64,000 nucleotides of DNA from contig CM059432.1 of NCBI GenBank assembly GCA_030390025.1, positions 12,586,001-12,650,000 on the forward strand, written 5' to 3'. Below are positions 8,290 to 59,860 of this stretch, one piece after another. The notes beneath the pieces are model-generated. The model saw nothing but the letters and a program-made list of their open reading frames with translations, searched no databases and was not told the origin of the DNA. Source of the stretch: Squalus acanthias. Taxonomy: Eukaryota. Both the position numbers and the translations under genes were made by a program. Within the stretch, counting starts at the first letter, position 1, and each line of letters starts with the position of its first letter.

Positions 8290-9270
8290 CATGCATAATG
8301 CTATTTGGAGGAAGAGGAGGAGGAGGAGGGAGAACCTTTGGATTCTAGGGAAGTGTGTGTGGCATCATCGCAGGAGCAGAGCATCTACCCACTTTGCCCT
8401 GCCAAATGAAAATACTGGCCACAAGAAAAATTACTTGGACTTGACAGAGGAGCAATAGCTTGGAGGCTCCAATTCACAAGGGAGGTAGTTACAGGCATGT
8501 GCAATATGCTGCTGGAGGACCTGTAGCCCAACTGACAGCCAACTTGAAATTTCTTGCCATGGTCTTTTTCAGGGGGTCAGTGGAGACATTAGTAACATCA
8601 GTCAGGCTGCACAAAACAGGTGACTGATGCACTGTCTGCTGGGCCAAGCAAGGAAATCACTTTCCCCAAGGGCAACAGGGAACAACAGGATAGTGTTATA
8701 TGTTTTTTTTTTCTAATGGCATGATTCATCAAGCAATGTCATTTATGGCGCCCTATTGCCCAATGTGATCCTGCACACAGGAATTGCCCATATATCAAGC
8801 AAACATTTTTTTTAATTAAGCGTCCAGTTTGTGTCCAACACTCTGCACCAGATACTGCATGTAAATGACTTATACCCTGGGTGCATCCATCATGCATTCA
8901 TTTTATGACAGTCCACCGTGCCACCATTATTAGCAGATACTCAGCAAGTCGAAGGTTTGGAGACCAAGGATACCCCTGGGCTTTGGCTTATCATCCCTCT
9001 GCAGAATATCTGCACGTTCACCAGATCCATCATTGAGCAGATAATAGGCATGATGAAACAGCACTTCTGATGTCTTGAGAGATCAGGGGCATCAAGTTTC
9101 CCAGATGGAATTTTCTCAGTTCAAGAGGCATGGACATGGAGCAGCAGGACCAAGAGCCATCTGAAGAATAGTTAGAGGATACTGCTAAGAAGCCTGAGGG
9201 ACTAGAGAAGACAGCAGCGCAAGCAATGTTGGAAGCGACAAAAACCTTGATGCAGGACACTTTCTCCTAA
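8290..9270 (+). pseudogene. Highly degenerate Harbinger DDE transposase (HARBI1-like)
   Basis: Manual translation across frameshifts gives YLDLTEEQ..RLQFTREVVTGMCNMLLEDL, FQGVSGDISNISQAA, QVTDAL, ILHVN..YPG, HAFIL.QSTVPPL, GDQGYP, ending TLMQDTFS* at 9270. Confidence 0.75.
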
Positions 9271-12510: not shown

Positions 12511-13834
12511 AGAGTTCAAAGGTGTACAGTCTTATCACCCTGTTGATTTCATTCGTTTAATTTCGACTACTGGCTAATTCAAATATTTTTCGGACAAACG
12601 CGGCTTTGAATTATCGGAAGTAGATGCTTGTGGGGGGGGGGCGGGTGCTATTGAGGTAGCACAGCGCTGATAACATGATCCCACGCAGGCTAGTGCAAAT
12701 TGTAACGATACAGTGTGAACATTTGCAGACGTTCCTTTACTTCACAAGGTGTCAGATTTTAATTGCAGGCTGTGCATGTGAATTAGAGACGTTCCCTTAA
12801 TCAGCATCTTGACAGTGTATCAATTAGACAACTGGAGTTGAGGCAGACTTCCCAACCGTATCCCTGAAAAACTTTAATAAAGTAAGTTTGGGTCCAATTC
12901 GCAGTTTCCCCCTGTCCAGAAAATCATTTCATTAATTAGCCCCAGTCAAAAGAAAAATTGCAGATCCCTGTGAAATTTCATCGCCTAATAATGGAAATTG
13001 CTGAAACTGTTTAATATTTATGAAATATTATCTTGTTCTGAAGTGAGCATTTCAATACGAGTCATGGTATTTAAGTGGATTAAAATGAGGCCAAAATAAA
13101 ATTTAATAAAGAGTAGGAGCACTGAGGTTTGAAGATTCTGACAGCGCGTTGCAGGAATAGTCAGACACCTCTTCAAACCTATCTGGCATGTTGGGGAATA
13201 TTACGAGGCATGTGGAATGTGAAAACTCACAGCAGTTGAGAGCTGACTCCAAATCGTGAAGTCTGTAGCTGACCGGTGGCCGACTTTTCCAGTTTTAATC
13301 TCTGTTAAGAGCACACATTCTACCATTAATACTTGGGCTAGAGTAAAATGCTGTCTTTACGTGAAGGACGGGTTTGGATAGGCTAGACGGGAAAAGGCTG
13401 TTCCCACTAGTTGATGGTACAAGGACTAGGGGACACAGATTTAAGGTTTTGGGCAAGAGATACAGGGGGGGCGTGAGGACAAACTTTTTTACACAGCGAG
13501 TGGTGAGGAGCTGGAACTCGCTGCCGACTGGAGTGGTGGAAGCAGAGACACTCAGGGCTGTATTTTGTCAGTGTGGGCGGGCTGGGGCGTGTCAGGTGGA
13601 AATCTTGTCAGGACCCCGACTCCTAAGTGATGTGTTGAAAAAGTGGGATTTTCCCCTAATTGGGCAATTGATTTCCTGCGTGTGGGAACCACTGGCCCAC
13701 AGAGTCTTTTCATACAGAAAGTCGCCTCCGATGACGTCATCATTGCTGTTGGATTTAAGGCCTGCAAGCAGCCTTGATTCTTCTGGAGACTGGAAACGCT
13801 TTGGACATTGTATGAAGGACTTCATTTACCGACC

Positions 13835-15799
13835 GTGTCCACCAGCAAGCAAAAGTGTGCACCTCGCTTTGATGAGCCCTCCCTCCAAGCTCTGGTGCAG
13901 GGAGCAAGATCTAATAAAGAGGTGCTCTTCCCTTCTTCAGGGAGAAAAAAGCCACCACAACAGACTAAAGCTGTGTGGCTGCAAGTGGCCCAGGAGGTCA
14001 ATGCCATCTCTATGTGCCGCAGAACCTGGCTGCAGTGCAGGAAGAGGTTTCATGACCTTCTCTGCACAGGAAAAGTGAGTATGACTTTCCCATCACCCTC
14101 AATCTGATCCCCATCGCCTCTCCTCACCAGCACTCAGCTTTGCCAACCTCTTCCTCCACATCCCACTTGACACTGACATCCCTGCACCCTTACCCATTCC
14201 CTCTCTCTCCATGGTCACATTCACTTAACTATTCGACCATGCAGCCCTCACACTCCCTATCACTGTGACGCAATGACGACAACTTACAACACACAGGGAG
14301 GGCCCTTTGTCTCCTTCTAAGCATTTATGCTATGGATTCTCTACACTCACTCCTTCATTCTCACTCAAACTCCACTTGTGTCCCTCATTGCAGGAAAAGA
14401 GAGCCCACAATAAGAGGGAAAGAGCAAGGACAGGAGGAGGGCCACCCTCAGTAGCCCAGCTCACCACCTCAGAGGAGGCGGCCCTGGAAATTGCTGGGAT
14501 CGAGGAGGATTCCCAAGTGGGGGACGGACAGGCGGGCGCATCACAGCAAGCTGGTGACAGAATAGTTTGGCATCTCTCTCATTGACATTGCATGAGTGAC
14601 TGATAATGATTCTGATGCTCTAACAGATTGACTTATGATCATCTGCACAATTCAATGTGCATGCAACCTTTACCTCACATCTCTGACTCTTTCCTTTACT
14701 CCCCCACAGGACCATTGAGAGCCCCCGTCCCCACTGTCCAGGAGGAACAGCCTGAGCCTCGAGACACCTCAGAGGAAGCTGCAACCTCTGAGGGCGCAGC
14801 ATCAGCAGAATTAAACGCACCCTGCACCAGCGCAGGCACTCACACGTCGGTGGGACCTTCAGGACATAGAGTAGAGTTGTCACAAGTGAGCATCAGCAGA
14901 TGGTGGAGACAGGGACAGAAGTGAAGAGTCCTCGTCACAGTGAAGAGGACGCTCCCAGCTCGGCTCCGCTGCATGTCGACCCTGTGCCTCCGGGTCCATC
15001 CAGAAGGAGAGTGGTGCTGGAACTCCAGGAACAGGTGCCGGAGTCTCTGGCAGGTTTTGTCTCCAGGGTCGCTGCGAGTGTGGAGCGAATGGAAGAGTCC
15101 ATCGCTAACATGAGCAGAGCCTTTGTGGAGGCGTTGGCGCATGAACGCATCACCACAGAAAGGATGGCAACCTCCTTGGAAAGGATGGCTACCTCCATGG
15201 TAAGGCTGGCTACCGTAGAGGAGAGGATGGCTACGGTAGAGGAGAGGATGGCTACGTCCATGGAGGATCTTAGTCGCCAGGGTATGGAAAACATGGTAAT
15301 TGTTCAGAATAGACTGACATCTCTTGAGGAGCGATGGTCAGCTATTGAGCAAACAAACCTGACCTTCATGCAAGTCCTCTGGAGTAGGACTTCCAGTGCA
15401 GAAACGGGTCCTCATGGCCCCCCTGAAGTGCAGCAAGGTGCTGTCCATCCACTTGCTAGCTCTGAAGTGGGGCTGACCCATGAGAGGGATGTTGGTGGCA
15501 TACAACAAGGAAGTGGGGGCTCCTCTCCAAGCACTCACACGACCATGCCACTGCAGTGCCCTCGGTCAGAGCCCCACCAGAGTCCCCACCCAACTGAGAT
15601 CGGCGTCTCAACCCCTGCACAGCCGCAGGAGCAGCAGACTGTTGCCGAGCCCTCACAGGTTTGCAACCCCAGAGGACGGCCGCCAAAGGTGTCGAGACAG
15701 GAGCAGCAAGAAAGTGAGCAAGAGGCCTCCACATCTGCTGAAGCCACAGGGGAAGCACCACGTAGGAGCACGCATAAGAGGAAGATAATGCACAAGTAG
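13835..15799 (+). CDS. Harbinger Myb/SANT-like DNA-binding protein, 3 exons (about 13835-14074, 14394-14553, 14710-15799); one apparent frameshift near 14885, start codon uncertain
   Basis: Exon 1 APRFDEPSLQALV...VLFP...W..VAQEVNA....RTWLQCRKRFHDL; donor aaaa|gtgagt, acceptor ttgcag|; exon 2 EKRAHNKRERARTGGGPP; phase-1 intron ctg|gtgaca...cccacag| is phase-compatible; exon 3 has a coiled-coil repeat and basic end APRRSTHKRK. Confidence 0.8.
15158..15262 (+). repeat. 5 x 21-bp coding tandem repeat (heptads ERMATSL, ERMATSM, VRLATVE, ERMATVE, ERMATSM)
   Basis: Seen directly in ORF 14900-15799. Confidence 0.9.
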
Positions 15800-16057
15800 T
15801 TACAAGGGTAGTCACTTGGGTGTAATGTTGTGTTTAATTTTGAAAAGCCATCAGTTGCTTATTGGCATAAAAAATTCTGATGGCAAACTGTTAGAGTTGT
15901 GGCATGTGTTATTTCGCTAATGGGACTTCCACATTGAGGGCTTAGGGCGACTTGCAATTGTCAGTATGGTGGTCAGAGTGATAGGTATCTGCAGGTTCTT
16001 GGCCATTGTTGATGGTCTGATAAGAAGGTGCGAGGCAAAAATGTTTGATTGTGCAGG

Positions 16058-16283
16058 CTAAGCAAATCTGGCCAAGATGAGTGCGTCCCTTGCATCCCGG
16101 GCAGCAATGTGGTCGCACGCTGGCGCCTTCTGGCCTGTGCAGCTTCAGGGGTGTGAGCAGCAGCTTGGCGCTCCTGTTGTTGCTGCTGCTGTTGGTGGTG
16201 CTGTTGTTCAGGGTTCTGCTGCTGCATGGCTGGTCTTCATCCGAATCTGATGTCCAGGAGGAAAGGAAATAAATGGTTCCCAT
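16058..16283 (-). pseudogene. Harbinger transposase remnant: N-terminus fused out of frame to the extreme C-terminus
   Basis: MGTIYFLSSWTSDSDED, a Q-rich tract and AAQARRRQRA are followed immediately by HIAARDARDALILARFA* in another frame; no DDE core. Confidence 0.7.
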
Positions 16284-16535
16284 GCTTCTGGTATATGCCT
16301 CAGTTGAGGAAGCGCTCAGTTAAGGTGGCGAGAGGGGTGTCCCAGGAGGTCACACTGGAGATGGGTGTCAGGCTCCAAACTTCCACAACAATGGGTATGC
16401 CTGCTAAAAGTTCCCCCAGACCTGAGACAACAAAGTTCTGCCATCTGCAAATGAAGATTGCTGAAAACTCCTTTTTAATGGTGGAGCTGCAGCTGTTAGT
16501 AAGCAGTCCACTTGTGAGGCCATCAGGTTTCACAG

Positions 16536-16960
16536 CTACACGGTGGCATAGTGGTTAGCACTGGTGTCTCACAGCGCCAGGGACCCGGATTCGAATCTGA
16601 CCTCGGGTGACTGTCTGTGTGGAGTTTGCACATTCTCCCCGTGTCTGCGTGGGTTTCCTCCGGGTGCTCCGGTTTCCTCCCACAGTCCAAAAATGTGCGG
16701 GTTAGGTTGATTTGGCTATGATAAATTGACCCTTAGTGTTAGGGGGGGATTAAATATGTGGGTTTATGGGGATAGGATGGGATATGTTAGGGGGAATTAA
16801 ATACGTGGGGTTACGGGGGTAGGGTGGGATATGTGTACTGTGGGGATTAAAGCAGGGACAGGGTACTGGATTTGGATGATCAGCCATGATCGTATTGAAT
16901 GGTGGAGCAGGCTCGACGGGCCGAATGGCCTACTCCTGCTCCTAGATTCTATGTTTCTAT
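16536..16960 (+). mobile_element. HE1/V-SINE-like SINE with CR1-derived tail
   Basis: A box tggcatagtgg, B box gattcgaatc, domain gtgtggagtttgcacattctccccgtgtctgcgtgggtttcctcc, tail ctatgttt repeats. Confidence 0.9.
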
Positions 16961-17659
16961 GTTTCACTGGCGTGTTCCAGAGGAGACGTACAGGACATGG
17001 GAAAAGTGGTAAAATCAGAAAGGCCTCTCAAAATGGGATTATAGAGGCAATTAACTGGTTGTTAAGGGCCTTAAGGGCCTATCCCGCCTCTTGGAGGCGG
17101 GATGGAAACGGGGTCAGAAAACACCCCGTGGGTGACCTTGTAAAATGTAAAGGTGAGCTCAAAATACTTCTTAATGGGCTGTTAACAAGATCATAATGAC
17201 CTGAATTGCCTCCCCCACTGCTGCGTGTCGGGTCTGTTCACCCTGACAGACCCAACATCTTGGGAAAATTGCTCGGAGGTGGGATGGAGGCGGGATCGGG
17301 CCCGCCCGCCATTTTTTGCGATTTTACCACCTCACACACCTCCAATCCCGCCTCCTCGGTCCTGGCAAAATTGAGCCCTTAATGTTTTCAAGGGGAGACT
17401 GGATAGGCACTTGAGGGAAATAAACTTGCAGGGCTGCGGGGATAGAGCGGGGGAATGGGACTGACTGGATTGCTCCACAGAGAGCCGGCACGGACTCGAT
17501 GGGCCGAATGGCCTCCTTCTGTGCCGTTATGACTCTCTCTCTCTATAACGTCATTTGATGATGCATCATCACCCGGTTTCCTTAAAGGGACCTTGCGCAA
17601 ATTTAGTTTGACAGTTGTGCTGTCAGTGTTCTACAGCATTGAGGTGCTGCAAACACTGA

Positions 17660-17901
17660 CAAGCACGGCACAGAGGTGCACGGCTGCACCCAGGCTCTCC
17701 CATGACTCCCTCCATATGCTTATGGAGGGAGTCAGAGCACGCAGGGAGGTTCTCTTCCCTTCCAATGGGCAGAAGAGACCTCCCCAGGAGATCAACGCAG
17801 CCTGGTTGCACATTGCACAGGAGGACACAAGCAGGGATGTCGTCAGGAGGACCAGGCTGCAGTGGCGCAAACCTTTCAATGATCTCAGTAGATCACAAAA
17901 C
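17660..17901 (+). pseudogene. Degenerate Myb/SANT exon 1 of Harbinger copy B
   Basis: AAPRLSHDSLHMLMEGVRARREVLFP...W.HIAQE...RRTRLQWRKPFNDL aligns with exon 1 of copy A; downstream exons are absent. Confidence 0.8.
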
Positions 17902-18401
17902 GTTACTGCAAAGCCACACTCAACCTCATCCTGCTGTGCCACTCATCACATCCCCATCACTCTGCCTCCCCTACCCTACTCCTGCACATCCTTACTCACA
18001 CCAACTTACCTTGCACCTCCACCCATCCCTCTCTATCTCCATTATCACTTCCCCATCTCACTAGCCACCCCTCACACTCACCCTCATCCTAGTCCAATCA
18101 GACCAACTAACAATACACAAGGGTAGGCACTTGGGTGTTTTATGCAATGTTCAAGTAAAGTTTCTGTTAATATGGTGTCAAACATTGAAACCTTTATATT
18201 CAGCACTTTGCCTTCTTGGACAGATTTGTGTGCACCTTTGGAAGTGGCTTAGTGAGTTGCAGTGAATGGTGAGACATAACGGTACCCCCGCAATGGTGAT
18301 GAGTGTGAAAGGCATGGCTTGGGCATTGTAGGGATTCTTTATGGTGTTGGTGTGGGATGGTGCCAACCTGGCGCATCATGTGACAGCCAAGGTGTACAGC
18401 A

Positions 18402-18620
18402 TCAAGTGAAGTAAATCTGGCCATGGTGAGGCCATCCCTGGCCTCCCGGGCAGCAATGTGGCCGAGTGCTGATGCCCTGTGTCCTGTGCAGCATCAGTTG
18501 ATTGCGGAGAAGGTTGGTGCTGTTGTTAGTGTTGCTGGTGTGCCTGGTGCTGCTGGTGTTGGGGCTGATCGTGGTGGGATTCTGAGGACCAAGGTGAGAT
18601 AGTTTCAAGGGCACCGATGC
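18402..18620 (-). pseudogene. Transposase remnant of Harbinger copy B
   Basis: GALETISPWSSE, a Q/H-rich tract and AAQDTGHQHS are joined to HIAAREARDGLTMARF at the same junction as in copy A. Confidence 0.7.
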
Positions 18621-19527
18621 TGATGTAATAGATGGCAAGTGAACTTGAGATGACAGAAGTGATCTGTCAGTGGTGAGAGAGGTTGTTCCAATGAGGTGAC
18701 ATTGGATAGAGAGTTTACTCCAAACACTTGCAACCAGCCCACAGCTCAATCTGTCTTCAAAATGAAGTAAGCAACAGCTTCTGACCTTGAAAAGTGAACA
18801 GCTGTGAGATGGGAGCTTTTATTGCACATTTCAAGCGGTCAAGTAATGAGATGATTCCATGCTCATACAACTCCCGACCTCCTTACCTGACGTGATCCCC
18901 GAGCAGCGTGGACCCCGTGGGTGACCTTGTAAAATGTAAAGGTGAGCTCAAAATACTTCTTAATGGGCTGTTAACAAGATCATAATGACCTGAATTGTCT
19001 CCCCCGCTGCTGCGTGTCGGGTCTGTTCACCCTGACAGACCTAACATCTGGGAAAGGTGCGTAGCGGCGGGTTGACAACGGGGTCCCGACCCGCTGTCAA
19101 AATAAATATTTTCCCACCCGACCCACCACCGAACGTGGCCGCTGAACCCCCAGAAAATTCCTCCCAAAGTAATTATTCAACAAGTCTGCTATTTCCTTAT
19201 TTTCATTTGCAATATTACCCCCATCTGTTTTTAAAGGGCTCACATTAACATTGACTACCCTTTTTCTCTTAATATATTTGTAAAAACTTTTTGTGTTAAT
19301 ATTGATATCCTTTATACGTCTTCTGCAATAAATCATACTAGTTGCAGTGCCACCCTACTTACCTGCCAGGCAGACGATATTTCTTTACTATATGTCATTC
19401 TCCAACCACACAAATAAAACTCATGCATACATTGCAACTCCTGTACCTGCATGTTCTATTTATAAAAATGTGAATTGTTCCTGATTTGGTGCGTGTTCCC
19501 ACAGTGCTTACCCTGTGTGTGTTGTGC

Positions 19528-28185: not shown

Positions 28186-28882
28186 GGGCTGGATTTTCAT
28201 TGACCCGAAGAGGTGGGTTTGGAGGCGTGTGGGGGGTTAAAATTGCGAAAACTGGCGGGCGGGCACAAGCCCGCCTCCATCCCGCCTCCACGCAATTTTC
28301 ATTAAATCGTGTCTGCTGGTCCCGACTCCGTCCCGCTTCTAAGAGGCGGGATAGGCTGTTAAGGCCCTTAACAAGCACTAAATTGCCTCTATAATGCCAT
28401 TTTGAAAGGCCTTTGTGATTTTAACCCTTTTTCTACGTGAAGCACGCCTGTTCTGAACCACGAATGTGAAACCTGGTGGGAGCACGGCTGGCTGGCTGGC
28501 ATATCTGGGAGCGGTGGTGGTGGATGGGTGGATGGATGACATATCTGGGAGTGGTGGTGGATGGGAGACATATCTGGGAGTGGTGGTGCAAAAATATCTG
28601 GGAGCAGACTTAGGGCTGCTGCTGCTCATTTTGCATCCAGGTCCTCTCACAGCAAAGGCCAGGCAGTCTTTGCAGACCTTCAATGCAGCAGCAATGATGA
28701 CATCATCAGAGGTGACTTTCAGACTGAAAACACTAATTGGTTCATGGGTTCCCACATGCTGGAACTCAATTGCCCAATTAGGTGAAAATCGCATCAATCT
28801 CCCACATCCAATTGCAGTCGGGTGGATAACACGAAAAGTGGATGACACGACCCCAACCCGCGCCAGTATCAAAATCCAGCCC
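28186..28882 (-). mobile_element. Non-autonomous Harbinger related to the ends of copy A, with an internal atatctgggag(t/c)ggtggtg tandem repeat (about 28500-28605)
   Basis: TIR gggctggatttt at both ends, AAT TSD; both subtermini align with 13555-13780 and 16990-17378 in reverse. Confidence 0.88.
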
Positions 28883-37830: not shown

Positions 37831-39237
37831 ATTGTAACCAAGTTTTGTGGGTACAGGAGACTGCATTAAACTTTGTGCCAAATTCTTTCCAGTCATTGCA
37901 CACAAGTACCGATGAGTAAGGGTATCCTGGTATTCCAAACAAGGCAAGTAAGTAAGGAAGTAAGAATTCTGGATCAATTCCACTCTAAAAGGCTGCTGCA
38001 GACCTTTACGGCTCTGCAGCAGCACTCCCAAATTTGGGCCGCATGCATTCCTTTTCCGCATTGCGGGCAGGAGCTTGTCGTGAATTTTTAAACTGGAGGC
38101 AAACCAGAAGTTCACTTGAAAACAGGCATTTCTTATTAGTCCAGCGGAAACCCCACCATGCTCAGTTTCTGCCTTTTAACGGCATAATTGGACTTTGTAC
38201 GCTCTGATTGAATCGCATGGTTATGTCACTGAAGTTGGCACCGCAAACAAATCATAAGACCTTGACATCAGATTTTTTTTTTTTTAAAAACAAGCTGTTT
38301 AATACGGTCCCTTACAAAAACAATTCTTGTAATATTTTGAATTGTCTGTAATGCTTTAAATTTCACTAAGGGGAAAGACGCCATGAATTCAGCCTCCCAA
38401 GAGGGAACAGCTGATTATTTGGAAGTGTGAGGACACTACTGGCCTTGTCAGAACTTTTTAAGCAAACTTAACTCATCATCAAATGTCCTTCATGTGATGA
38501 TTGAATTGTGGCTGGGCACGGCACCCAACAATGGGGAAAATGCAGGGCCGGTGGGGAGTTTCTTACCGTTCAGTCTTGTATAAAATATTTAATGTAAGTG
38601 GGTATCTCTGTTCTGATGTTTCTGTGGGTAACCTTTTCCTGCTTCCTCTTCCCCCCCGCCAACTCCCCCTTCCCCCCCACCCCCCGTCCCCACCGCCACC
38701 GTCCCGCCATCCACCCCCCACCCCACCCTGCTCCCAGTCTACTCAACAAGATTGTTTGGCAATCTACGTCCTGTGCGACAATGTTAGGCATTTTACAATT
38801 TGGACACTGTGGTATGCTCAACATAACTACCACATTACACGTGGCTACAATTATAATTGAGGAATCCAATTAGTCAAGTTTCAAGATAATTACTTTTTTA
38901 AAACTGTGACTTGATATTTCATAACTGTTAAAATCCGTGTTAATGAGAATTAGCGAAAGAAAATTTGATTGTTAAAGACTGTTAAGGCCATGCCAAAGTC
39001 CCATCATATCTATCATGTGCGAGATTGCACAGAGAGAGGGAATATTAAAAAAAAACTGAGTTCTAAGCCCACATTCAGAGCTGGCTTTGACTGTATGAAG
39101 GAAGGACAGGTTTTAAAAGTATCAGCACAGCTAGTACTTATCTACGTGTATAAAAATATTGCCTCTAGCCTGCATTTTGCCTGTAACACTTCACACATTA
39201 CACATTGGGTGTCACACTTCAGACATTAAATATTGCA

Positions 39238-40911
39238 GGGGCTAAATTGGATGGCCCCCGAAAATGGGCGCGGGAATCGCGATGCACGATTTATAAGTAT
39301 TTAAGCAGCATTTTACCAGGTTCTAACGATTTTTCCATGTTTTTTACGAGGCTCCCAGCGCTCGGGGATCACGTCAGGTAAGTGCGTCGAGTTCTCAATG
39401 ACTCTCCATTGCTGTGAATAGTTGACAGCTGCAAAAGTGGTATAAAAGCTACCATTTCACAGCTGTTGAATTTCCAATCTTAGAAGCTGGAGCCTTCAGG
39501 ATTTGGAATACACTTTTCAGCTTTATGGAGGTTTGAAGTGTTTGGAGCAAACTCTCTGGCCAGTGTCACCTTCTTGGAGCAACCTCTCTCACCATTGACA
39601 GATCGCTTCAGTCATCTCAACTTCAGCTGCCATCTATTTCATCAGCATCGGTGCCCTTGAAAAAATCTCACCTTGGTCCTCAGAATCCCACCACGATCAG
39701 CCCCAACACCAATGTTACCAGGCACACCAGCAGCACCAGGCACACCAGCAGCACCAACAACAACACCAACCTTCTCTGCAATCACCTGATGCTGCACAGG
39801 ACACAGGGCATCAGCACCCGAGCACATTGCTGCCCGGGAGGCCAGGGATGGCCCCACCATGGCCACATTTACTTCACTTGACGCTGTACACCCTGGCTGT
39901 CACATGATGTGCCAGGTTGGCACCACCCCACCTCAACACCATAAAGCATCCCTACAATGTCCAAGCCATTCCTTTCACACTCATCACCATTGGGGGTGGG
40001 GGGTGAGTACTGTTATGTCTCACCATTTACTGCAACTCACTAAGCCAGTTCCAAAGGTGCACACAAATCTGTCCAAGAAGGCAAAGTGTTGAAAATAAAG
40101 ATTTCAATGTTTGACACCACATTAACAGAAACTTTACATGAACATTGGCTAAAACACACAAGTGCCTACCCTTGTATGTTGTTAGTTGGTATGATTGGAC
40201 TGGGATGAGGGTGAGTGTGAGTGGTGGCTAGTGAGATGGGGAAGTGATAATGTAGATAGAGAGAGATGGGTGGAGGTGCAAGGTAAATTGGTGTGTGTAA
40301 GGATGTGTAGGAGTAGGGTAGGGAAGGCAGAGTGATGGGGATATGATGAGTGGCACAGCAGGATGGGGTTGAGTGTGGCTTTGCAGTAATGTTTCGTGAT
40401 CTACTGAGATCATTGAAAGGTTTGCGCCACTGCAGCCTGGTCCTCCTGACCACATCCCTGCTTGTGCCCTCCTGTGCAATGTGCAACCCGGCTGCGTTGG
40501 TCTCCTGGGGAGGTCTCTTCCGCCCACTGGAATGGAAGAGAACCTCCCTGCGCACTGTGACTCTCTCCATAAGCATATGGAGGGAGTCATGGGAGAGCCT
40601 GGGTGCAGCCGTACACCTCTGTGCAGTGCTTGTCAGTGTTTGCAGCACCTCAATGCTAAAGAACACTGACAGCACAACTGTCACAATGATTGTGGACATG
40701 GCCCCTTTAAGGAAACTGGCTGATGACGCGTCATCAAATAACGTCATCAGACCCGCTTCCTATTAATTGGCCGGGAACCTCGCAGGGCGGGCTTAGCAAG
40801 GCCCATCATCGGAATATCTTGTTGGAGGCCGGGATCGAGACAGATGCGGGGTCCCCACACGCCACGGACGTCGCCCGCCCCGGACCCGCCGAGGTTGGAA
40901 AAATCCAGCCC
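39238..40911 (-). mobile_element. Non-autonomous Harbinger (copy C), inverted relative of copy B
   Basis: Myb exon 1 remnant (-) at about 40390-40630, transposase remnant (+) at about 39645-39880, TIR aaaatccagccc at 40911; the left end is of a different type (ggggctaaattgg). Confidence 0.85.
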
Positions 40912-41313
40912 TGGGTGTCATCCTTCAGACATTAAACACGGGTGTCATCCTTCAGACATTAAACATGGGTGTCACCCTTCAGACATTAAACATGGGTGTC
41001 ATCCTTCAGACATTAAACATGGGTGTCACCCTTCAGACATTAAACATGGGTGTCATCCTTCAGACATTAAACATGGGTGTCATCCTTCAGACATTAAACA
41101 TGGGTGTCACACTTCAGACATTAAACATGGGTGTCATCCTTCAGACATTAAACATGGGTGTCACACTTCAGACATTAAACATGGGTGTCATCCTTCAGAC
41201 ATTAAACATGGGTGTCATCCTTCAGACATTAAACATGGGTGTCACACTTCAGACATTAAACATGGGTGTCACTCTTTAAACTTTAAACGTTGGGTGTCAC
41301 ACTTCAGACATTG
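40912..41313. repeat. 27-bp minisatellite tgggtgtca(tc/cc/ca)cttcagacattaaaca; 13 near-perfect plus 2 degenerate units
   Basis: Seen directly; further units at 39185-39232. Confidence 0.97.
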
Positions 41314-58744: not shown

Positions 58745-59860
58745 ACTAGACCTGATAGAGGTCTTTAAGATTATGGAAGTGTTAGAGTAGACGTAGGGAA
58801 GATGTTTCCACTTGTGGGGGGTGGGGGAGACCAGAACTAGGGGTCATAAATGTAAGATAGTCACTAATAAACCCAATAGGAAGCTTCTTTACCCCAGAGA
58901 GTGGTTAGAATGTGGAACTCGCTACCTCAAGGAGTAGTTGAGGCGAATAGTATAGATGCCTTTAAGGGGAAACTAGATAAATACATGAGGTAGAAAGGAA
59001 TAGAAGGATATGTTCATAGGGTGAGATGAAGTAGGGTGGAAGGAGGCTCATGTGGAGCATAAACACCGTCACAGACCAGTTAAATGCAATTACATAGAAT
59101 TTACAGTGGTTAGCACTGGTGCCTCACAGCGCCAGAGACCCGGGTTCGAATCTGACCTCGGGTGACTGTCTGTGTGGAGTTTGCACATTCTCCCCGTGTC
59201 TGCGTGGGTTTCCTCCGGGTGCTCCGGTTTCCTCCCACAGTCCAAAAATGTGTGGGTTAGGTTGATTTGGCTATGATAAATTGACCCTTAGTGTTAGGGG
59301 GGATTAAATATGTGGGGTTATGGGGATAGGATGGGATATGTTAGGGGGAATTAAATACGTGGGGTTACGGGGGTAGGGTGGGATATGTGTACTGTGGGGA
59401 TTAAAGCAGGGACAGGGTACTGGATTTGGATGATCAGCCATGATCGTATTGAATGGCGGAGCAGGCTCGACGGGCCGAATGGCCTACTCCTGCTCCTAGA
59501 TTCTATGTTTCTATGTTTACAGCACAGAAATAGGCCATTCGGCCTAATTGGGGCATTTATCCTTCTATTCCTTTCTCCCTCATGTATTTATGTAGCTTCC
59601 CCTTAAATGCATCTATGCTATTTGCCTCAACTACTCCTTGCTGTGGTTACACATTCTTAACACTCTTTAGGTAAGGAAGTTTCTCTTGAATTCCCTATTG
59701 GATTTATAGGTAACTATCTTATTTTTATGGCTTCTAATTTGGTCTTCCTCACAAGTGGAAACATCTTCTTTACCTCGACCCTTCATAATCTTAAAGACCT
59801 CTTTTAGGTCATCCCTCAGCCTTCGCTTTTTGAGAGAAAAGAGCCCCAGCCTGTACAGTC
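58745..59860. mobile_element. Two CR1 3' fragments tail-to-tail (+ 58745-59080; - 59088-59860), the second interrupted by a SINE
   Basis: DLIEVFKIM...TRTRGHK and reverse-complement counterparts. Confidence 0.75.
59105..59517 (+). mobile_element. HE1/V-SINE-like SINE
   Basis: Nearly identical to 16551-16964. Confidence 0.9.

Follow-up and report, generated by a model that had tools for sequence, protein, structure and literature searches.

Three DDE-less Harbinger derivatives

The 64,000-nt stretch of the Squalus acanthias genome analysed here (the window) carries three elements, A, B and C, that are PIF/Harbinger derivatives (Table 1). Each combines a transposase remnant with a Myb/SANT gene or exon while the DDE core is absent, just as a sequence-only reading of the same DNA had proposed. 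No DDE core was found in any of them by tblastn, with a decayed DDE gene at ~8300-9270 serving as the positive control, and all three thereby lack the intact DDE transposase gene of an autonomous Harbinger. The decayed gene itself was rejected as a parent of A, B or C, as it has no DNA match to them. The terminal inverted repeats of A match at 11/14 positions and its flanks, TCA and TTA, represent a TWA-type 3-bp duplication with one change; the end repeats of C match at 8/14 positions, without a clear duplication. PF13873 scores reach 42.8 bits in A and 23.8 in B, both above the cut-off, and 16.3 in C, which is below it.

Table 1. Positions of the elements and their parts in the window (Q, glutamine-rich).
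Feature	Position	Strand	Remark
Element A, complete DDE-less Harbinger insertion	13555..17378	+	within continuous CR1-like LINE piece
A Myb exon 1	13835..14074	+	PF13873; first codon GTG, family majority ATG
A Myb intron 1	14075-14393	+	phase 0, GT-AG
A Myb exon 2	14394..14553	+	between GT-AG introns
A Myb intron 2	14554-14709	+	phase 1, GT-AG
A Myb exon 3	14710..15799	+	frameshift at 14879/14880
A transposase end, probably last ~24 codons, and stop	16058..16132	-	match to P0002
A presumed transposase start, 19 codons and Q-rich tract	16133..16283	-	out of frame with tail
Insert in A, presumably a SINE-like short interspersed repeat	16539..16964	.	98% identity to 59105-59518
145-bp tract, A right end	17123..17267	+	97% identity to B 18912-19055; not in MITE D
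Element B, second family	17545..19165	+	left end missing; right end unlike that of C
B Myb exon 1 remnant	17686..17901	+	splice donor lost; exons 2-3 absent
B transposase remnant	18407..18618	-	start codon ATC; stop inside Q tract
MITE D, non-coding relative of A ends	28187..28882	-	identity 72-83%
Element C, family of B	39239..40911	-	1216/1358 aligned bases identical to B
C transposase remnant	39647..39876	+	alignment with A and B
C Myb exon 1 remnant	40391..40606	-	splice donor lost
Tail 17-mer, exact matches	16095-16111, 18444-18460, 39823-39839	-, -, +

A and B differ at ~35% of positions, which agrees with the earlier statement that the elements are otherwise clearly diverged. Elements of the A type form a high-copy family: 106,475 contig pieces belong to it in run X1 (contig counts do not give copy number), 30/30 bins are covered in 4/4 runs, and some contigs bridge the join between the two transposase pieces; on this contig evidence, A represents a multi-copy family with a Myb gene and without DDE. 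A further DDE-less relative, 82% like A, has tail and start linked within 140 letters (run X17 record 21). Among the 24 listed of 3462 rows, none shows a loose end at the join of A, so that A has no evident close full-length parent.

A profile search gave three matches, of which P0001 and P0003 were rejected as relatives, being repetitive proteins unrelated to transposases. P0002, a protein of the sawshark Pristiophorus japonicus, has a DDE_Tnp_4 domain (PF13359, E 5e-16), an assignment confirmed by Atlas search, and its last residues match the remnant tail. As a query it led to three further proteins from sharks or rays, which are longer and have starts unlike A or B. In protein word searches neither Myb exon 1 (18 candidates) nor the tail alignment (357 candidates) gave a match, and a pattern scan of viral contigs gave 0 loci; two pattern loci on metagenome contigs stood outside any transposase context and were taken as chance.

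State of the Myb/SANT gene

The three-exon Myb/SANT gene described earlier for A is indeed present (PF13873, E 5e-11). Its GT-AG introns, 319 and 156 nt long, are phase-compatible, and both of its open parts are stop-free. The single apparent frameshift that had been noted is real, but the start codon has been lost as well: the ATG at 13835 is carried by nearly all contig depth and missing in A. Judging from the loose ends of 158 contigs in run X1, the frameshift would be a private 19-bp deletion at 14880, and the A-family majority sequence is open at both lesions. In B and C most of the gene is gone, as had also been recognized, through loss of the splice donor and of exons 2-3. Among the 15 listed of 163 joints, in two runs that are only guessed to be RNA, none skipping an A Myb intron was seen, a result that does not bear on expression.

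In A, B and C alike the Myb gene is dead; the proposal that the lineage had maintained it is not supported, and the terminal comparisons look neutral. The private changes of A comprise 3 synonymous and 17 non-synonymous ones, that is, a synonymous share of 3/20 against 0.24 expected if neutral, where the 20 sites are the coding ones within the best-supported 40 of 1114 rows. Between B and C, 72 codons of exon 1 hold 2/8/2 differences at codon positions 1/2/3, with 1 synonymous and 10 non-synonymous codon changes. On a terminal branch neutrality is expected whatever the model. The deeper comparison of A with B over 72 codons of exon 1 (28/20/43 differences at positions 1/2/3) is one of constrained divergence, which autonomous parents would predict equally.

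The join in the transposase remnant

The tail 17-mer occurs exactly three times in the 64-kb window against 0.14 expected, and 0/100 shuffles gave three. The alignment of A, B and C is gapless from ~20 codons upstream of a shared 10-mer through the transposase stop, in remnants of 210-230 bp with an ungapped join, so the observation that the Q-rich part is joined directly to the transposase end holds for all three. The frames of start and tail are mismatched across the join in A, B and C alike. Between two identical blocks at the join, 22 nt hold 9 differences between A and B (hand count), and many contigs (76 of run X1, 40 of run X8) carry an extra base at A 16224-16227.

The tail, reported as the last ~17 codons, is a true transposase C-terminus, but by comparison with one protein, P0002, the retained piece is probably ~24 codons long. 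This would likely place the break where the shared 10-mer ends on its 3′ side (A ~16132-16134), and the 50-mer quoted as the junction would then be mostly native C-terminal sequence. The ATG, frame and codon pattern of the Q-rich part suggest that it is the N-terminus of the transposase, as stated earlier; a full-length protein whose start matches it was not found.

One nuclease loss or separate losses

The sequence-only reading placed a single nuclease loss before the split of A and B. The first 19 codons, aligned ungapped from the start, differ between A and B by 9/1/14 at codon positions 1/2/3 (Fisher P 1.5e-5; permutation P 2.5e-5), a pattern that a stub drifting neutrally after a single loss should not give and which argues for separate losses. 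The Q tract, with a codon pattern of 8/2/9 of 20, was left out, as CAN repeats can imitate such a signal. Non-coding DNA nearby is 65-77% identical between A and B, and the last 51 nt hold 8 differences between A and B (P 0.002-0.015 against 30-35% divergence) and 10 between A and C (P 0.013-0.07). In the last 17 residues, B agrees with P0002 at 15/17, A with P0002 at 12/17 and A with B at 12/17; at the five residues that differ between A and B, P0002 sides with B at four and with A at one. Simulated neutral drift of 15-18% per site gave two or fewer changes with P 0.03-0.08 and one or fewer with P 0.008-0.02. The codon signal of the tail (4/25, 3/21 and 8/24 at sites where B = C) lies in the transposase frame, which in all three copies is not that of the start. 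A start that diverged under coding constraint and a B tail that resembles a DDE-bearing protein more than it does A together suggest separate losses from already diverged parents; the neutral stubs and common descent that had been anticipated for junction-bearing copies appear to be contradicted, if indirectly, by the same two results.

We therefore lean, by somewhat better than even chances, towards A and B/C being two DDE-less, non-autonomous Harbinger families in which the nuclease was likely lost separately from diverged full-length parents. Internal deletions would have struck the transposase gene at almost the same position, once per family; what they retain is both element ends, the Myb gene and short transposase stubs. 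The common register would most likely stem from a putative short stretch of homology shared by the last codons and the end of the Q-rich start, of the kind involved in gap-repair deletions. Harbinger transposition requires two proteins, so the deleted copies would be mobilised in trans, with other copies supplying the transposase and the Myb protein that cut and paste them; because the Myb product would likewise act in trans, the Myb gene of a deleted copy would ride along unselected.

Several results count against separate losses. A gapless and equally out-of-frame join in A, B and C, the strongest point of the sequence-only reading, would require a putative hotspot if the deletions were independent, and the 82% relative with linked tail and start, as well as the lack of loose ends at the join among the listed rows, point the same way. 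The comparison with P0002 extends over 17 residues of a single protein, predicted automatically in a different species, and its model is partly chimeric, including part of a B-like Q tract in antisense. At a drift of 10% the simulated result is not significant (P 0.11-0.29), nor is the codon bias of the tail alone (Fisher P 0.27). All of these join observations, with the constrained Myb exon 1 and the A-family majority open at both A lesions, would fit the original proposal of one ancient loss, after which a Myb-only satellite lineage with a selected Myb and a borrowed transposase split into A and B/C. We consider this unlikely, given the coding-type divergence of the start, the grouping of the B tail with P0002, and a Myb gene that is dead in 3/3 copies and whose constraint between A and B would be expected equally from autonomous parents.

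Shared register and coding-type divergence would be reconciled if one deletion had later been copied into other autonomous families via template switching or gene conversion. Exchange between these elements does look real, judging from the 145-bp tract shared at 97% by A and B and from the differing right ends of B and C, but the divergence of the 22 nt at the join is at background level, so that a recent shared tract is not seen there, and we regard this course of events as improbable too. Less probable still is one loss after which selection kept the short frame that runs from the transposase ATG to the end of the Q tract, its product being a mini-protein that might, for instance, modulate transposition by binding Myb. 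In its favour are the first 19 codons with their strong codon signal, the extra base at 16224-16227, which would put the Q tract into the frame of the ATG, and a Q tract that is open for 84 codons further; against it, the ATG is lost in B and C, the B tract contains a stop, the codon pattern past the join fits the transposase frame instead, and the match of B to P0002 is left unexplained. With similarly little confidence, one may imagine an old nuclease-free shark lineage, born once, in which Myb and the Q-rich mini-protein were both selected until the families stood 35% apart, as a two-gene satellite regulating or recruiting the nuclease of a helper. A single origin or a selected mini-protein, if true, would carry greater weight, because a selected trans-acting gene in a non-autonomous DNA transposon needs cis preference or a regulatory role.

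Returning to separate losses, A, B and C are most likely ordinary defective elements, and DNA-binding-only Harbingers have already been published (sea krait 2021; C. inopinata 2026 preprint). Paper searches turned up nothing on Myb-only Harbingers of sharks, and the available part of a newt paper does not describe a Myb-only form (PMC5741667). According to the available portions of the sources, autonomous Harbingers hold Myb/SANT and transposase genes, short terminal repeats and a 3-bp TWA-type duplication (PMC9179366; Harbinger3_DR as cited there). The shark elements share with them the Myb/SANT gene, the ends and a tail homologous to the shark HARBI1-like DDE_Tnp_4 protein P0002, but are not autonomous, having no DDE domain. 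Harbinger-Snek of sea kraits includes solo-ORF, Myb-like-only variants, ascribed to large deletions and thought to be non-autonomous, with 452 intact copies in L. colubrina (PMC8437027). This is likewise a multi-copy vertebrate Harbinger with Myb and without DDE; unlike that single young family, as its accessible text presents it, the shark has two families ~35% apart with a common deletion register, and the copies seen in the window are decayed. In Caenorhabditis inopinata, Harbinger-1M_cIno is an expanded MADF-only family that has lost its DDE, and mobilisation in trans was proposed and called undemonstrated by its authors (bioRxiv 10.64898/2026.05.26.728016). Here too the DNA-binding module was retained, the DDE is gone and the family expanded, but in the nematode a new insertion was caught and 14/19 MADF loci are intact, whereas A, B and C are known from sequence alone with Myb broken in 3/3; the part of the preprint at hand reports no junction common across families, such as A and B/C have. 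Repeated internal deletions are also known from the Ozma MITE families, derived from a mariner through microhomologies of 6-8 bp (PMC3814204). As there, several non-autonomous families would each come from their own internal deletion of a DNA transposon, but Ozma is a Tc1/mariner whose breakpoints, in the portion of that paper available, differ per family and whose homologies are demonstrated, whereas the shark breakpoints coincide and the homology is putative. On this reading, sharks are added to the hosts of DNA-binding-only Harbinger derivatives, with a hint of a deletion hotspot common to diverged families that bears on the annotation and dating of very abundant repeats.

Structure of elements A, B and C

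Three Harbinger derivatives, A, B and C, retain a transposase remnant in which a Q-rich, presumed transposase start meets the C-terminal tail of the protein, with no DDE core in between. The feature is real and its kind is already known: DNA-binding-only Harbinger variants are described from sea kraits (available text of PMC8437027), and an active and expanded family from C. inopinata (available text of bioRxiv 10.64898/2026.05.26.728016). Our literature search found no paper on such elements in sharks.

Features of the three Harbinger derivatives (window positions)
Feature	Position	Strand	Length	Remarks
Element A	13555-17378	+		Harbinger derivative with both ends
Myb/SANT gene of A		+		Three exons; PF13873, 42.8 bits
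Transposase remnant of A	16058-16283	-	226 nt	
Element B	17545-19165			Second family, with C
Transposase remnant of B			212 nt	
Element C	39239-40911			Second family, with B
Transposase remnant of C			230 nt	

The terminal ends of A match at 11 of 14 bases, and the element is flanked by TCA and TTA within a CR1-like piece that is otherwise unbroken. In CR1-like 3′ pieces, A (at 13555) and another Harbinger-type end (~27185) have inserted at roughly matching sites. A short repeat inside A (16539-16964) is 98% identical to 59105-59518 and thus belongs to a young family. B and C agree at 1216 of 1358 aligned bases, and their Myb gene is reduced to exon 1, with the splice donor gone; A is 61-62% identical to them across Myb exon 1 plus intron 1 and 64-65% across the remnant. 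Element C lies in or next to an array of 27-bp tandem repeats, whose units flank it at 39202-39233 and 40912-41312. DDE cores of four cartilaginous-fish transposases, used as queries, found no match in A, B or C and did match the positive control, a heavily decayed Harbinger transposase gene with a DDE core at ~8300-9270 (+). This gene, with LINE pieces on either side, was rejected as a member of the A/B/C families and represents a separate one.

The junction and the transposase tail

A gapless three-way alignment over the join bears out the common junction proposed by the sequence-only reading. A 17-mer in the tail occurs three times in the window against 0.14 expected, and the Q-rich frame is out of register with the tail frame in A, B and C alike, by the same offset. 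A profile search with the tail reached the extreme end of P0002, a DDE_Tnp_4 protein of the sawshark Pristiophorus japonicus (E 8.6e-5); the other two of the three matches were unrelated proteins and were set aside. The seven residues preceding the conserved block also resemble P0002, requiring 6, 7 and 8 base changes in A, B and C (P 0.003, 0.011 and 0.04 against random window DNA), whereas the next seven upstream show no such likeness (P above 0.9). A tail of ~24 codons is therefore probable, with the break near the end of a 10-mer shared at the join. Against this length speaks one loose end in run X17 (two contigs) that, read by hand, has a stop in the tail frame within that stretch. On the Myb-sense strand, the 10-mer region consists of pyrimidines followed by CAG (A 16125-16142; B 18472-18491, +), a likeness to a splice acceptor that may be due to chance.

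Contigs of four public runs were aligned to 13555-16535 (106,475 pieces in run X1), covering 30 of 30 bins in each run. At 16150 and 16152, letters unlike copy A account for ~99% of the depth. The contigs that carry them reach 64 letters in from the contig ends, which shows that the join is spanned. In a relative ~82% like A (X17 record 21), tail and start are joined inside 140 letters, and no loose end at the join appears in the 24 rows listed of 3462. Copies with the junction are therefore common, and those 24 rows give no sign of a close full-length parent for A. Many contigs carry one extra base at 16224-16227, which would align the transposase ATG frame with the Q tract and yield an open frame of ~105 codons in the A family.

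Constraint on the Myb gene

That the lineage maintained its Myb gene is not supported. The three-exon gene stands in A, where its two GT-AG introns measure 319 nt (phase 0) and 156 nt (phase 1), and exon 1 diverged between A and B under constraint (28/20/43 differences by codon position in 72 codons), as is equally expected from autonomous parents. Between B and C the same exon shows no constraint (2/8/2; 10 codons changed non-synonymously, one synonymously). Copy A lacks the ATG at 13835 that ~98% of contig depth carries, and is frameshifted at 14880, where a 19-bp deletion is inferred (158 contigs, X1). Of the 20 coding changes private to this copy, drawn from the best-supported 40 of 1114 rows, 3 are synonymous, against a fraction of 0.24 expected under neutrality, and 17 non-synonymous. 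The A-family majority sequence is open at both lesions, which fits amplification of a founder whose Myb gene was intact and is uninformative on later selection. A trans-acting protein gives little advantage to its own gene copy. Splicing was absent from the contig rows listed, which is evidence neither for nor against.

Loss of the nuclease

What is in hand for A is both ends, a Myb gene, no DDE core and many related copies. Harbinger transposition requires both proteins, the Myb-like one binding the ends and the transposase (available text of PMC9179366). Copies of the A/B/C type would be mobilised by proteins from other copies, the DDE-less form would arise by internal deletion in gap repair, and short homology may set the register of the join.

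Had the nuclease been lost once before the A/B split, the stubs should have drifted evenly over codon positions since. The first 19 codons, gapless from the start, instead differ between A and B at 9, 1 and 14 sites of codon positions 1, 2 and 3 (Fisher P 1.5e-5; permutation P 2.5e-5). The last 51 nt are better conserved than non-coding DNA (8 differences A-B, 10 A-C), with a codon bias that leans to the transposase frame and alone is not significant (P 0.27). Over the last 17 residues B matches P0002 at 15, A matches P0002 at 12 and A matches B at 12, P0002 being a single predicted, partly chimeric model whose residues 67-87 match the B Q tract antisense at 73%. Neutral drift simulated across half the A-B distance gave so few changes at P 0.008-0.08 (15-18%) or P 0.11-0.29 (10%). 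The start pattern, the better-kept tail and the nearness of B's tail to P0002 speak against the single loss, and a Myb satellite of single origin is quite unlikely. The better fit is divergence between parents whose transposase was still functional, with the deletion occurring at least two times or being copied across.

We lean, somewhat better than evenly, towards repeated deletion of the DDE core in separate families. Transfer of one junction between families is unlikely and yet a viable rival, since exchange between neighbouring elements looks real: a 145-bp tract (A 17123-17267, B 18912-19055) is 97% identical, and the right ends of B (18905-19165) and C (39239-39360) differ, with interiors ~90% alike, which suggests end swapping between Harbinger families. 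The tract, missing from C and from MITE D (28187-28882, -), a relative of A's ends, shows no obvious target duplication and, close to its 3′ end, contains a short inverted repeat; it may be a small mobile piece or have arisen by local conversion not long ago. A mini-protein reading of the remnant is very doubtful. Residues 67-87 of P0002 fall mid DDE domain of the sawshark gene model, and this antisense Q-tract translation points to a B-like element probably inverted in that locus.
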